Source: Escherichia coli (GTDB taxonomy: Bacteria; Pseudomonadota; Gammaproteobacteria; Enterobacterales; Enterobacteriaceae). From it: a stretch of 64,000 nt of DNA. Position numbers and translations under genes: made by a program. A model generated the notes under the pieces. The model did no database searches. It was not told the origin of the DNA and saw only the letters and a list, made by a program, of their open reading frames with translations. Where the stretch lies: NCBI RefSeq assembly GCF_044647545.1, contig NZ_CP172818.1. The stretch is one strand, 5' to 3'. Below, one piece after another: positions 21,165 to 44,056 of this stretch (positions are counted from its first letter, which is position 1; each line of letters begins with the position of its first letter).

Positions 21165-23219
21165 ATGGAACTGAAAGCGACAACGCTTGGAAAACGTCTG
21201 GCACAGCACCCTTACGATCGGGCGGTGATCCTCAATGCCGGGATTAAAGTCTCCGGCGATCGCCACGAATACCTTATTCCTTTCAATCAATTACTGGCGA
21301 TTCACTGTAAGCGCGGTCTGGTATGGGGCGAGCTGGAATTTGTACTGCCGGACGAAAAAGTGGTGCGTCTGCACGGCACCGAATGGGGCGAGACGCAGCG
21401 TTTTTACCATCATCTTGATACTCACTGGCGGCGGTGGAGTGGGGAGATGGGCGAAATTGCGTCTGGCGTTTTACGTCAGCAACTGGATTTGATTGCCACG
21501 CGCACCGGAGAAAATAAATGGCTGACGCGTGAGCAAACCTCTGGTGTGCAGCAACAAATCCGCCAGGCTTTGTCGGCGTTGCCGTTGCCGGTTAACCGAC
21601 TGGAAGAATTCGATAACTGCCGTGAGGCGTGGCGTAAATGTCAGGCCTGGTTGAAGGACATTGAAGGCGCTCGGTTGCAGCATAATCAGGCGTATACCGA
21701 AGCCATGCTTACCGAGTATGCGGATTTTTTCCGCCAGGTCGAGTCTTCACCGCTGAATCCGGCGCAGGCCCGGGCAGTCGTTAATGGCGAGCATTCTTTG
21801 TTAGTGCTGGCTGGTGCAGGAAGCGGAAAAACGTCGGTGCTGGTGGCCCGTGCAGGCTGGTTGCTGGCACGTGGTGAAGCGTCCCCTGAGCAAATTTTAT
21901 TGCTGGCGTTTGGTCGCAAAGCCGCTGAAGAGATGGACGAGCGTATTCGCGAACGGCTACATACCGAAGACATTACCGCACGCACATTTCATGCGCTGGC
22001 GCTGCATATTATTCAGCAGGGCAGCAAAAAAGTTCCGATAGTCAGCAAACTGGAAAATGATACCGCTGCCCGTCATGAACTTTTTATTGCTGAGTGGCGC
22101 AAGCAATGCAGCGAAAAGAAAGCGCAGGCGAAGGGCTGGCGGCAATGGCTGACGGAAGAAATGCAGTGGTCAGTGCCAGAAGGTAACTTCTGGGATGATG
22201 AAAAATTACAGCGTCGTCTTGCCTCACGCATCGATCGTTGGGTAAGTCTGATGCGGATGCACGGTGGTGCACAGGCAGAAATGATTGCCAGTGCACCCGA
22301 AGAGATTCGCGATCTGTTCAGTAAACGTATCAAGTTGATGGCTCCGTTATTAAAAGCCTGGAAAGGTGCGCTGAAGGCAGAAAACGCTGTCGATTTTTCG
22401 GGCCTTATTCACCAGGCGATTGTGATTCTGGAGAAAGGTCGCTTTATCAGCCCGTGGAAGCATATTCTGGTTGATGAATTTCAGGATATCTCGCCGCAGC
22501 GCGCAGCGTTGTTAGCGGCATTACGCAAGCAAAACAGTCAGACGACGTTGTTCGCCGTTGGTGATGACTGGCAGGCGATTTATCGCTTCAGCGGTGCGCA
22601 AATGTCGCTCACCACCGCTTTCCATGAAAACTTTGGTGAAGGTGATCGCTGCGATTTAGACACGACTTACCGTTTTAACAGTCGTATCGGTGAGGTGGCA
22701 AACCGGTTTATTCAGCAGAACCCAGGCCAGCTGAAAAAGCCGCTAAACAGCTTAACCAATGGAGACAAAAAAGCCGTCACGTTATTGGATGAGAGCCATC
22801 TTGACGCTTTGCTGGATAAGCTCTCTGGTTATGCCAAACCGGAAGAGCGCATTCTGATCCTGGCGCGTTACCATCACATGAGGCCTGCCAGCCTGGAAAA
22901 AGCGGCAACACGCTGGCCGAAGTTGCAAATCGACTTTATGACCATTCATGCCAGCAAAGGGCAACAGGCGGATTACGTCATCATCGTTGGCTTGCAGGAG
23001 GGGAGTGATGGTTTTCCGGCTGCGGCGCGGGAGTCGATTATGGAAGAGGCGCTACTGCCACCGGTTGAGGATTTCCCGGACGCTGAAGAACGGCGGTTAA
23101 TGTACGTGGCGCTGACCCGGGCACGCCATCGGGTATGGGCACTGTTTAACAAAGAGAATCCCTCTCCATTTGTCGAAATACTGAAAAATCTGGATGTGCC
23201 GGTGGCGAGAAAACCGTAA
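21165..23219 (+). CDS. helD: DNA helicase IV
   Basis: 684-aa ORF from ATG at 21165 (MELKATTLGKRLAQHPYDRAV...); Walker A GAGSGKTSV; UvrD-like motifs. Confidence 0.9.
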   Translation: MELKATTLGKRLAQHPYDRAVILNAGIKVSGDRHEYLIPFNQLLAIHCKRGLVWGELEFVLPDEKVVRLHGTEWGETQRFYHHLDTHWRRWSGEMGEIASGVLRQQLDLIATRTGENKWLTREQTSGVQQQIRQALSALPLPVNRLEEFDNCREAWRKCQAWLKDIEGARLQHNQAYTEAMLTEYADFFRQVESSPLNPAQARAVVNGEHSLLVLAGAGSGKTSVLVARAGWLLARGEASPEQILLLAFGRKAAEEMDERIRERLHTEDITARTFHALALHIIQQGSKKVPIVSKLENDTAARHELFIAEWRKQCSEKKAQAKGWRQWLTEEMQWSVPEGNFWDDEKLQRRLASRIDRWVSLMRMHGGAQAEMIASAPEEIRDLFSKRIKLMAPLLKAWKGALKAENAVDFSGLIHQAIVILEKGRFISPWKHILVDEFQDISPQRAALLAALRKQNSQTTLFAVGDDWQAIYRFSGAQMSLTTAFHENFGEGDRCDLDTTYRFNSRIGEVANRFIQQNPGQLKKPLNSLTNGDKKAVTLLDESHLDALLDKLSGYAKPEERILILARYHHMRPASLEKAATRWPKLQIDFMTIHASKGQQADYVIIVGLQEGSDGFPAAARESIMEEALLPPVEDFPDAEERRLMYVALTRARHRVWALFNKENPSPFVEILKNLDVPVARKP

Positions 23220-37310: not shown

Positions 37311-38576
37311 ATGAAAGCGATCTTAATCCCATTCTTATCTCTTCTGATTCCGTTCACCCCGCAATCTGCATTCGCTCAGAGTGAGCCGGAGCTGAAGCTG
37401 GAAAGTGTGGTGATTGTCAGTCGTCATGGTGTGCGTGCTCCAACCAAGGCCACGCAACTGATGCAGGATGTCACCCCAGACGCATGGCCAACCTGGCCGG
37501 TAAAACTGGGTTGGCTGACACCGCGCGGTGGTGAGCTGATCGCCTATCTCGGACATTACCAACGCCAGCGTCTGGTAGCCGACGGATTGCTGACGAAAAA
37601 GGGCTGCCCGCAGCCTGGTCAGGTCGCGATTATTGCTGATGTCGACGAGCGTACCCGTAAAACAGGCGAAGCCTTCGCCGCCGGGCTGGCACCTGACTGT
37701 GCAATAACCGTACATACCCAGGCAGATACGTCCAGTCCCGATCCGTTATTTAATCCTCTAAAAAATGGCGTTTGCCAACTGGATAACGCGAATGTGACTG
37801 ACGCGATCCTCAGCAGGGCAGGAGGGTCAATTGCTGACTTTACCGGGCATCGGCAAACGGCGTTTCGCGAACTGGAACAGGTGCTTAATTTCCCACAATC
37901 AAACTTGTGCCTTAACCGTGAGAAACAGGACAAAAGTTGTTCATTAACGCAGGCATTACCATCGGAACTCAAGGTGAGCGCCGACAATGTCTCATTAACC
38001 GGTGCGGTAAGCCTAGCGTCAATGCTGACGGAGATATTTCTCCTGCAACAGGCACAAGGAATGCCGGAGCCGGGGTGGGGAAGGATCACTGATTCACACC
38101 AGTGGAACACCTTGCTAAGTTTGCATAACGCGCAATTTTATTTACTACAACGCACGCCAGAGGTTGCCCGCAGTCGCGCCACCCCGTTATTGGATTTGAT
38201 CATGGCAGCGTTGACGCCCCATCCACCGCAAAAACAGGCGTATGGTGTGACATTACCCACTTCAGTGCTGTTTATCGCCGGACACGATACTAATCTGGCA
38301 AATCTCGGCGGCGCACTGGAGCTCAACTGGACGCTTCCTGGTCAGCCGGATAACACGCCGCCAGGAGGTGAACTGGTGTTTGAACGCTGGCGTCGGCTTA
38401 GCGATAACAGCCAGTGGATTCAGGTTTCGCTGGTCTTTCAGACTTTACAGCAGATGCGTGATAAAACGCCGCTATCATTAAATACGCCGCCCGGAGAGGT
38501 GAAACTGACCCTGGCAGGATGTGAAGAGCGAAACGCGCAGGGCAGTGTTCGTTGGCCGGTTTTACGCAAATCGTGA
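37311..38576 (+). CDS. appA: Periplasmic phytase / acid phosphatase AppA with frameshifted, truncated C-terminus
   Basis: ATG at 37311 gives MKAILIPFLSLLIPFTPQSAFA signal peptide; RHGVRAP histidine acid phosphatase motif. Frame ends ...NAQGSVRWPVLRKS*, whereas the +1 frame reads LAGFTQIVNE (the expected AppA C-terminus, recalled) before running into GC-rich DNA. Confidence 0.85.
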   Translation: MKAILIPFLSLLIPFTPQSAFAQSEPELKLESVVIVSRHGVRAPTKATQLMQDVTPDAWPTWPVKLGWLTPRGGELIAYLGHYQRQRLVADGLLTKKGCPQPGQVAIIADVDERTRKTGEAFAAGLAPDCAITVHTQADTSSPDPLFNPLKNGVCQLDNANVTDAILSRAGGSIADFTGHRQTAFRELEQVLNFPQSNLCLNREKQDKSCSLTQALPSELKVSADNVSLTGAVSLASMLTEIFLLQQAQGMPEPGWGRITDSHQWNTLLSLHNAQFYLLQRTPEVARSRATPLLDLIMAALTPHPPQKQAYGVTLPTSVLFIAGHDTNLANLGGALELNWTLPGQPDNTPPGGELVFERWRRLSDNSQWIQVSLVFQTLQQMRDKTPLSLNTPPGEVKLTLAGCEERNAQGSVRWPVLRKS

Positions 38577-38581
38577 ATGAA

Positions 38582-38840
38582 CGGGGGGACGACGGGCGAC
38601 GGGGGCCGCGGGGAAGACGACGGGACGCGGGGCTATCCGCCAGCGCGGCTGTTCGCGTTGCGGGTCGCGGCGCGGGCCCCGTGGTGCGCCTGCCGCTGGG
38701 CGCCTGGCCTGCTCGGCCTGCGGGGGTTGGTGCGGCGGGGCCGCTTGTCCCGCCGGGCGCCGCGCGCGTCCGCGGGCGGCCGTCGGCGCTCGGCGCGGGC
38801 GGGCCGCGCCTCGGGGGCCGCCCCCCCCGGGCGCCTCTCC
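38582..38840. other. Compositionally foreign GC-rich block (about 85% GC) at the appA-cspH junction; origin unknown
   Basis: Counted 80-93% GC per 60-nt line against roughly 50% in flanks; G/C homopolymer runs (8 C at 38821-38828); open frames on both strands with Arg/Gly/Pro/Ala-rich translations and no RBS. Confidence 0.8.
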
Positions 38841-38841
38841 A

Positions 38842-39054
38842 TCAAGACAAATAAACATTTGCCGCTGTTGGTCCTCGCAGGCCATTTACGCGGCAAAATT
38901 CCACGCGTAATCCTGGTATAAGCACTTCTGCGTCGCGGGGAGTGAATGCGGAAATATGGACCTGGACTTCTTTACGACCGTCGGAGGGGATAATGAATCC
39001 TTTGCCGCTTTTGCGATCAAAGGTTTTGACAATTCCTGTCATTTTACGGGACAA
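38842..39054 (-). CDS. cspH: Cold-shock-like protein CspH
   Basis: 70-aa [40 protein letters not shown]... Confidence 0.9.
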
Positions 39055-39339
39055 ACAAATTCCTTACTGAAAATACTGCGCTGCACTATACGGGGTTAAT
39101 AAAATAAAGCCAGCGATATTTAAGACCGCCGGACGGCTAAAATAAAATTTGCTTAATCTCAATTATCATGCGTTAATAGCTGCGTCGGTTTGAAAGACAG
39201 ACAGCATACAAAGTAGTTTACTAAAGCAGTTCTCATTATCAGGCATTATCCCCTTCTTTTGAGTCTCTCTCCTGAACACTAAGTAGTTTCTGTATTAAAG
39301 CCCTGTTTGCCGAAAGGCCCAAAATGAAGGAAGTAAAAT

Positions 39340-41241: not shown

Positions 41242-41323
41242 GATTTTGCCAGTCCGTTAAGTTGCATACCAAATGCCACTATTCTAGTTGTTCTTAACTG
41301 GCTGATATTGATTCAAATCGCGT

Positions 41324-44056
41324 TCAGGTCTTTCTTATTAACCATGCTTCCAGAGCGGCAACACTGCGTGTAATTTCTTCGTGTGGAAGGGGGGCAGATA
41401 ATGGCTGCTGCTCCAGTTGTGCGCAAAGCTGGCTGGCGCTACGCATTCCCAGACTCGAGCAACTGCTTTTTAGCTGATGTGCGGCACGCTTTATTTTTTC
41501 GCTGTTCTGGCTGGCGCGGGCAATGTCGATTTCATCGAGAAGCGGCAGGGCATGTTGTTTAAATAATATCAGCCATTCGTGGATCTTCTCCGTCCCCATC
41601 AACTGAGCATCTTCATTGAGTTGCGATACATCCAGCGGTTGATCGTTATTGACTTGTAGTTGGAGATAGTGCGCCAGTAACTGACCGAGCACTTCACGCG
41701 GCACCGGTTTAGGGATAATCCCGCGAAATAATGAACTGGTACGCTGGCGCAACGTTTCGTCGATGACATGAGCGCTAAAGCCAATCAAAACCAGCGACGG
41801 ATATTGCTGTGCCAGTTGCCGGGCAAGCGTGATGCCGTCGATATCGGGCAGATCAAAATCCACCAGTGCGGCAGCAAACGGTTCACTATTTTGCAACGTC
41901 TCTATCGCGTGCGCGGCATTTCCTACCGCAACGACCTGCGCACCACTGGTAGTCAGCATCTCGACGGTAATTCGCTGGGTTAGCGGGTTATCTTCAATTA
42001 ACAGCAAACGTAAACCGTCCAGACGCACCGCCTGATTGACTGTTTTTGGCACGGGAGCAGTGGCAACACGTAACGGCAAGCGTAAACAAAAACAGCTTCC
42101 AACTTCCGGCGTGCTGGTGGCGCTCAGTTCGCCGCCCATCGCCTGGGCCAGACGGCTACTGATAGTCAGCCCCAGCCCGGTGCCGCCGCGTTTGCCGCTT
42201 ACCTGCACAAATGGCTGGAAGATTTCTGCCAGTTTCGCGGGATCAATACCGCAGCCGCTGTCTTCCACTTCGACCAGCCATTGCTCGCCATCAGTGCGGC
42301 TACGTAAAACGATCTGCCCTTCGTCAGTAAAACGCAGGGCGTTGCTCAACAGGTTGGTTATAACCTGACGAATACGTCGCGGATCGCCCATTAACGCGGT
42401 CGGTACATCGTCGGCAATTGCTGTTGCCAGGTGAATCGGGCGACCTTTAACCCGTCCGCTCATTAATTGCAGGGTACTTTCCAGCAGCGGGCGCGGTTCA
42501 AAGGGCTCATCGCTGACCGAAACATTCTTGCCACCCGCTTCGATAGCCGAATAATCGAGAATATCGTTGAGGATGGTCAGCAACGATTCACCAGAGTCGG
42601 TAATTGCCCGCAAATCATCACGCTGGGCATTAAGTGCGGGGTTATCTGCCAGCAGTTGCGCGGTGCCAAGAATACCGTACAGCGGTGTGCGGATCTCATG
42701 GCTCATCGCCGCCAGAAACGCCGATTTTGCCTGGCTGGCTTTTTCTGCTTCCGCCCGTGCCTGTCGGTGTTCTATCACCAGTTCCTGCAATTCAGCTGTA
42801 CGCGCTTTGACCTGCGCCGCCAGCTGTTCACGGTGGCGATTCAGTGCATGAACACTGCTGCGAAACGCATCCATCAGCCGCCCGATGGTGTCCAGCTCCC
42901 GCACGCCAGCGGTTTCCGGGAAAGGGGAGTTGATATCACCGTCCAGCAGCCGTTGCAGCGCCTGCGTTTGTTCGGCAAGTGGACGCGTGACTGAGCGATA
43001 AACCACGCGCCAGAGGATCAGAATCAGTGCGCAAAGTGAAACCATCCCCAGCAATAACAGGCTGTATTGCCCGCGTGCACTGGCTTTTTCCAGATGCGCC
43101 AGTCCGTGCTGATTACGCAGCTCAATGGTGTCGACCAGCTGACTGACTTCGCTACTAAACTGCGCGAACTGGGCGATGTTATTTTGGGCGAGAGTTTGCA
43201 GGCGATTGCTGATTTCACTGTCCTGCTGATACAGCGCCAGCAAATCGCTATATTGGCTAACGGTAGTTAACGTTGTTGCGACCTGAGCACGAACTCCCGG
43301 ATCTTCAATGCGTATTTGCCGACGTTGCAGAATTTTCACCGCATTATTGAGCTGGTGTTCCAGCGTTGCTGCATTTTTCTGGATCTGCTCCAGCCCAAGA
43401 TTCATCACCATTTGCTGCACCCGCAGGGCGCTAAGGCGCAGTTCATTCATCTGGTTAACATACTCAAGATCGATATCAATCAGCCGATCGAGTGCACTTT
43501 CTGCGGCCTGACGCTGATGTTGTTCGATCAAATCGTAAATCCCGGCCTGGGTCGCTCCGGCGGAAGTTGCCGCATTATTCGCCTGACCTTGCGCCAGGCG
43601 TGCGATTTCATCGGCGGCGGCGACTATCTGCTGACTGAGTCGCTGTTGTTGCTGGCGCAGTTGCAAACGCTGCCCCACCAGTTCCCCTTGCTGACGTAAC
43701 GAACGGGAGATCTCCTGCTCCTGTTGTTCAATAGCGGTGGTATCAAAACCTTGTTCCCGTAACGCTTGCAGCAACGCATTAATCTTCAGGCTTTGTGCGG
43801 TGAGCATTCGCCCCTGCGCCTGCCACATCTTTTCGTTATCGGCACTGGTCAGGTTCTGCGCGGCGAAAAGTTCCCAGGCGCTGGCTTCGCTCAACTGGCG
43901 CGCCATATTCATGGTAGGAATCAATGCCTGAGTGTTGTCTTTTTCCACTTGGCTGATAAAGCGCAGGTTGTACCATCCCACCAGGGTACTGGTCAGGGTT
44001 AACAGCGCCATCAGGGCAAAGCCCATCCAGAGTCTTCGGGTCAGGGTTAAATTCAC
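41324..44056 (-). CDS. torS: TMAO sensor hybrid histidine kinase TorS (start approximate)
   Basis: Long ORF with HisKA (SHEIRTPL), HATPase, receiver and HPt regions; probable GTG start at 44056 giving (M)[18 protein letters not shown]; start codon choice not verified. Confidence 0.85.

Follow-up and report, generated by a model that had tools for sequence, protein, structure and literature searches.

What is the GC-rich block that separates appA from cspH in this chromosome, and does it belong to the organism or to its sequence record? The window, by which we mean the whole 64-kb stretch (64,000 nt) analyzed here, is ordinary Escherichia coli chromosome running from ycbU to putA. Positions 38582 to 38840 contain 123 G, 98 C, 28 T, and 10 A residues, i.e., 85.3% GC. 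The window averages 51.7%, and the GC-richest 259-nt stretch elsewhere reaches 64.1%; the block lies about 6.5 standard deviations above the mean. The original prediction had described a block of about 85% GC that is alien to E. coli, and this description holds, while the interpretation offered with it is supported in part: megablast and blastn searches of 5,426 complete E. coli genomes (28 Gb) returned no match at E ≤ 10. The run of eight C residues at 38821 to 38828 and several runs of four to six G residues, noted in the same description, are present as well.

Alignment to near-identical genomes defines the edges of the block. On the left, native sequence extends to 38581 (...GTGAATGAA), and on the right it is again unambiguous from 38835 (CTCTCCATCAAG...), so that the foreign part measures 253 nt (38582 to 38834). 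The right edge can be placed only to within about 7 nt, since CGGGCGC at 38828 to 38834 partly resembles the native CGTGCG. The block was first thought to end 2 bp before the cspH stop codon, but its aligned end lies 7 nt before that codon (38842 to 38844).

Within these limits the plus strand falls into two compartments. The left compartment (38582 to 38633) is T-free and rich in G and A, with 9 of the 10 A residues of the block; the right compartment (38634 to 38834) has almost no A, the last one being at 38642, and holds all 26 T residues in a background of about 49% G, 38% C, and 13% T. Thus, all 10 A residues fall between 38589 and 38642, within the first 61 nt, the last 192 nt have none, and the first T of the block is at 38634. 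An A precedes a T in 257 of the 260 possible A/T pairs (permutation p < 5e-6). The longest run of A and T is TAT, and k-mer diversity is that of shuffled sequences. The composition of the block is unlike that of ordinary double-stranded genomic DNA.

It had also been suggested that the G tracts could form stable secondary structure. With a criterion of at least four tracts of three or more G residues separated by loops of 1 to 7 nt, a regular-expression search located a canonical G-quadruplex motif on the plus strand at 38583 to 38613, GGGGGGACGACGGGCGACGGGGGCCGCGGGG (G6-N5-G3-N4-G5-N4-G4), a match at the level of sequence motif. The overall fold of the block, on the other hand, is no better than that of shuffles of the same composition (z = +0.74), of which 156 of 200 fold at least as well, and stable structure in general is not supported.

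What the block displaced can be read from its relatives. In K-12, about 9 kb comprising etk-etp-gfcEDCBA-IS1D lies between appA and cspH, and the block was originally proposed to replace that locus. However, appA overlaps cspH directly in 1679 of the 5426 complete E. coli genomes, including every near-identical relative, and the 9-kb etk-etp-gfcEDCBA segment is absent there. The lineage already had abutting appA and cspH genes, so that the K-12 etk/gfc locus was not what the block replaced. The native order in the relatives is ...GTGAATGAA-GCACGCATACCGGCGTGCG-CTCTCCATCAAG..., in which the 19-nt GCACGCATACCGGCGTGCG gives way to 253 nt here. Those 19 nt form a hairpin with a 6-bp stem, a 6-nt loop, and one further base (GCACGC-ATACCG-GCGTGC+G) that folds modestly (z = -2.0), and a terminator scanner called no terminator at this position in either the window or a relative. 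We note that the convergent overlap of appA and cspH spans 13 nt in the relatives examined, with the junction directly after the GCACGC/GCGTGC hairpin, and that AppA ends in ...PACALHQDK* in these relatives and in ...PACSL* in K-12. A literature search on appA, cspH, and gfc returned nothing relevant.

The nearest relatives of the window, found by alignment to complete genomes, are ST648-type E. coli genomes and are nearly identical to it. Over about 63.8 kb aligned with WP5-S18-ESBL-08 there are four differences. One is a SNP at 22230 in helD (21165 to 23219) that is non-synonymous (HelD L356I); the exact protein has no record in a large assembly collection. Another is a 1-nt deletion on the plus strand at 38544/38545, where the T of GGGCATGTGTT is gone in alignments to both FDAARGOS_497 and WP5-S18-ESBL-08. 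The block itself, to which no strand is assigned, is the third, and the fourth is a 2-nt deletion, GCC[AT]CACC, at 56183 between ymdF and rutG. The 56183 deletion allele had no full-query match in the complete E. coli genomes, the best full-length match being 96.9% identical. Three of the four private differences are thus indels, both small ones being unique, and since the helD SNP is the sole SNP relative to the nearest genome, private indels outnumber private SNPs. Consensus errors would more typically produce such a ratio than clonal divergence would. As a separate observation, a GC-rich, terminator-like hairpin, ACCGCCGG-TAACC-CCGGCGGT, lies 2 nt downstream of the 56183 deletion.

Both flanking genes are touched by these changes. 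The appA gene, for an acid phosphatase/phytase, occupies 37311 to 38576 on the plus strand according to the open reading frame list and the annotation of relatives, and is truncated: its product reads ...AQGSVRWPVLRKS, compared to ...AQGMCSLAGFTQIVNEARIPACALHQDK for the intact protein. It is the deletion of T at 38545, 37 nt upstream of the block, that shifts the frame and ends the reading frame at 38576; this deletion, and not the block, truncates appA, a point that the original prediction missed. None of 1785 complete genomes with the same appA 3' allele carries the deletion. In the large assembly collection, the exact products of the truncated appA (from two starts) and of two reading frames of the block are not on record, and the intact AppA allele, our positive control for exact-protein lookup, was found in 4201 blocks of that collection. 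Past the frameshift, the native appA frame is open on the plus strand from 38552 to 38854: the net gain of 234 nt amounts to 78 codons, and the frame therefore crosses the block and reaches the native ...LHQDK* end. Retention of the frame is a one-in-three chance event that means little at 85% GC, and it is not evidence of coding. On the other side, cspH (38842 to 39054, minus strand) is intact but has lost its downstream hairpin.

Collections of many kinds were searched for a relative or donor of the block. Against 72,556 plasmids (vectors included) and 50,697 phages, blastn gave only short chance hits to high-GC bacteria (E values of 0.006 to 0.9). Species genomes (100,044) were scanned with one wobble-degenerate pattern of 35 nt and six peptide patterns of 8 residues, with no match confirmed; this test used seven short stretches with exact or degenerate matching, and so leaves room for a divergent or unsampled donor. 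Two patterns had no match in JGI metagenomes, and neither DNA nor peptide patterns matched viral contigs; across these three collections, therefore, no donor could be identified for a horizontal fragment from a high-GC bacterium. At the protein level, the concatenated six-frame translation found none among 5.8 billion clusters at E ≤ 0.01, an exhaustive HMMER search of the six-frame translation found none among 1.84 billion representatives at E ≤ 1e-3, and four open reading frames of the block had no match in NCBIfam. A local template is no better supported, as comparison with the rest of the window and with the K-12 etk/gfc region gave chance matches only. We also considered whether the block is a native sequence collapsed to purine/pyrimidine or amino/keto classes, which models hyper-transition or two-color channel loss. 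This was rejected for the nearby sequences tested, the best match fraction being 0.66 with 0.50 ± 0.03 expected and at least 0.9 needed.

Two readings would give the block a purpose, and we regard both as very unlikely. The first, a functional element in the form of a small gene, a structured RNA, or a hairpin-targeting miniature mobile element, draws on several features. All six frames are nearly open, as originally stated, with one stop codon in total. The A and T positions avoid one codon phase (16/15/5), a weak and marginal three-base periodicity (p ~ 0.014), and GC is about 80% at both non-wobble positions. On the minus strand, the frame in keeping with this periodicity has its stop, a TAG, at 38635 to 38633, where the composition switches, and the insertion site is a hairpin. 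Against this, every frame is a low-complexity string of Arg, Gly, Pro, and Ala with no protein relative, which is also why the minus-strand string is not read as a gene; no frame has a homolog, a domain, or an ordinary amino acid content, in agreement with the early judgment, now backed by the six-frame and NCBIfam searches, that the block is not gene-like. Rfam at E ≤ 10 had nothing in the block, the sole match in the searched stretch being a weak one to the cspA thermoregulator over the cspH leader, and folding does not exceed that of shuffles. Neither terminal inverted repeats nor a target duplication is present, 19 nt of target having been deleted instead; internal direct and inverted repeats are weak, tandem arrays are trivial, and there is no foldback or inverted duplication between the left and right compartments. 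A second copy was found neither in E. coli genomes, plasmids, or phages nor elsewhere in the window. The block is comparable in size (~250 nt) to MITEs and to the PATEs derived from IS200/IS605, and it shares with them an intergenic-type hairpin site between convergent genes, but unlike them it has no terminal inverted repeats or target-site duplication, deletes 19 nt, and occurs once, with relatives in none of the collections searched. The functional reading is thus already largely refuted. Deliberate genome editing at appA that left a scar, a barcode, or a landing pad, one of the origins initially proposed, has an equally slight chance of being correct. The replacement is precise, the net change of +234 nt is a multiple of three, and the appA phytase is a biotechnological target. 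Nevertheless, nothing among the 72,556 plasmids and vectors matches, the flanks are not primer-like or restriction-site-like, and the background is that of a wild ST648-type chromosome, with environmental and clinical isolates identical to it; 85% GC with a G-quadruplex-forming sequence would also be a poor design choice. FRT and loxP have AT-rich cores or spacers, which cannot be present where the longest A/T run is TAT, and a cloning or recombineering scar (FRT, loxP, or vector remnant) was accordingly rejected. The block is not a gene, a known RNA, a transposon-like element, or a standard cloning scar. It looks like a one-off, non-functional replacement scar of orphan GC-rich filler that encodes nothing and belongs to no element.

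The remaining question is where the filler was acquired, in the cell or in the sequence record. Genuine insertion in vivo is possible but doubtful. It would have started from a double-strand break at or near the appA/cspH hairpin, at which Ku-independent (alternative) end joining captured exogenous DNA; repair would have removed about 19 nt, taken in the 253-bp filler, and introduced an error-prone -1 deletion at a distance of 37 nt, and the outcome would be an appA pseudogene with no new function. A preprint reports a native end-joining activity in E. coli (bioRxiv 10.1101/605246). Several features of the locus are those expected of filler DNA in alternative end joining (A-EJ): a short target deletion is filled by unrelated DNA between intact and collinear flanks, target bases are lost and not duplicated, a private frameshift lies within 37 nt in a window that is otherwise almost error-free, and CGGGCGC versus CGTGCG may represent microhomology at the right junction. 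A-EJ was reportedly described by Chayot and colleagues in PNAS in 2010, and DinB-dependent -1 frameshifts occur near double-strand-break repair. The base content, strongly non-random along the block, is also unlike simple noise. The block differs from such filler in being compositionally extreme and without an identified donor in any collection searched, and the event in the cell is presumed; 85% GC and a 192-nt A-free run are atypical of bacterial DNA, and, among the lineage's thousands of assemblies, the block stands alone. Its alternating T-free and A-free GC-rich segments may resemble vertebrate rDNA spacers or expansion segments in composition, a likeness that would make a real transfer extraordinary. 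That the block entered the chromosome through end-joining capture of 253 bp of exogenous DNA, as a candidate capture from host to bacterium, we consider improbable. A human L1 fragment is reported to occur in Neisseria gonorrhoeae (Anderson and Seifert, 2011), and the block would likewise place a short eukaryote-like, non-coding piece of DNA in a host-associated bacterium; however, the Neisseria fragment is shared by many isolates, whereas the block is a singleton, and its eukaryotic origin would be a matter of compositional resemblance.

We favor a technical origin of the filler, in the sequence record, which we judge to be somewhat more likely than genuine insertion into the chromosome and to which we give about an even chance. 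The filler could have come from a long-read consensus of poor quality, from a gap or break closed wrongly, or from a molecule that was chimeric or a contaminant. In a lineage that is well sampled, and in which the intact AppA allele is abundant, the block was seen once and there is no record of the truncated product; it is accompanied by two other small private deletions, against one SNP in the same 64 kb; no donor or homolog was found; its composition, with A confined to the first 61 nt, is unlike that of ordinary genomic DNA; and nothing in the Rfam search, fold, repeats, or k-mer diversity suggests function. In addition, neither the RefSeq complete-genome set nor the large protein collection contains the source assembly. 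In its singleton state, its lack of a homolog, and the excess of private indels over SNPs around it, the block resembles artefacts of assembly, gap closure, or consensus known from draft and long-read genomes. Typical artefacts, however, are found where contigs end, or are duplicated or inverted copies of native sequence, whereas the block is internal and returns to the exact locus, and its composition is patterned and not noise-like. The clean return after 253 nt makes simple contamination or a de Bruijn mis-join an unlikely source and would call for molecules or reads that cross both junctions. Elsewhere the window is accurate, differing at three other places in 64 kb, and the loss of target bases, the possible right-junction microhomology (CGNGCG), and the nearby -1 frameshift also fit double-strand-break repair. 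We can name no specific sequencing or assembly mechanism that gives such a composition.

The two origins have different consequences. If the block is an artefact, the consequence is purely practical: the record needs a flag, and such evidence is by itself no ground for annotating appA as a pseudogene in this strain. Should the block exist in the chromosome, it would act only destructively: the AppA C terminus would be lost, from a gene already frameshifted, together with the hairpin downstream of cspH. A real block would be a clean natural case of foreign filler taken up during end-joining repair, in a clinical E. coli lineage, and, given a eukaryotic donor, a rare transfer from host to bacterium. 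Artefact or real, it indicates no new gene, RNA, or system.

Some minor features of the window were also seen. The stretch covering the cspH leader and coding region (38794 to 39100, minus strand) has a weak Rfam match to the cspA thermoregulator (16.4 bits, E = 0.075), for which the gathering score of 78 is well above the match; such a match is expected for a cspA paralog and lies outside the present finding. A T insertion at 1468, at the 3' end of ycbF, was seen relative to FDAARGOS_497. It is common to 11 complete genomes, including ECONIH1 and WP5-S18-ESBL-08, and is thus a marker of a sub-lineage and not an error of the window; ycbF is annotated as frameshifted in WP5-S18-ESBL-08. Finally, torS (about 41312 to 44055, minus strand, from inferred coordinates) is annotated as a frameshifted pseudogene in both FDAARGOS_497 and WP5-S18-ESBL-08, and since the window is identical to both relatives there, it presumably carries the same lineage-wide torS frameshift.
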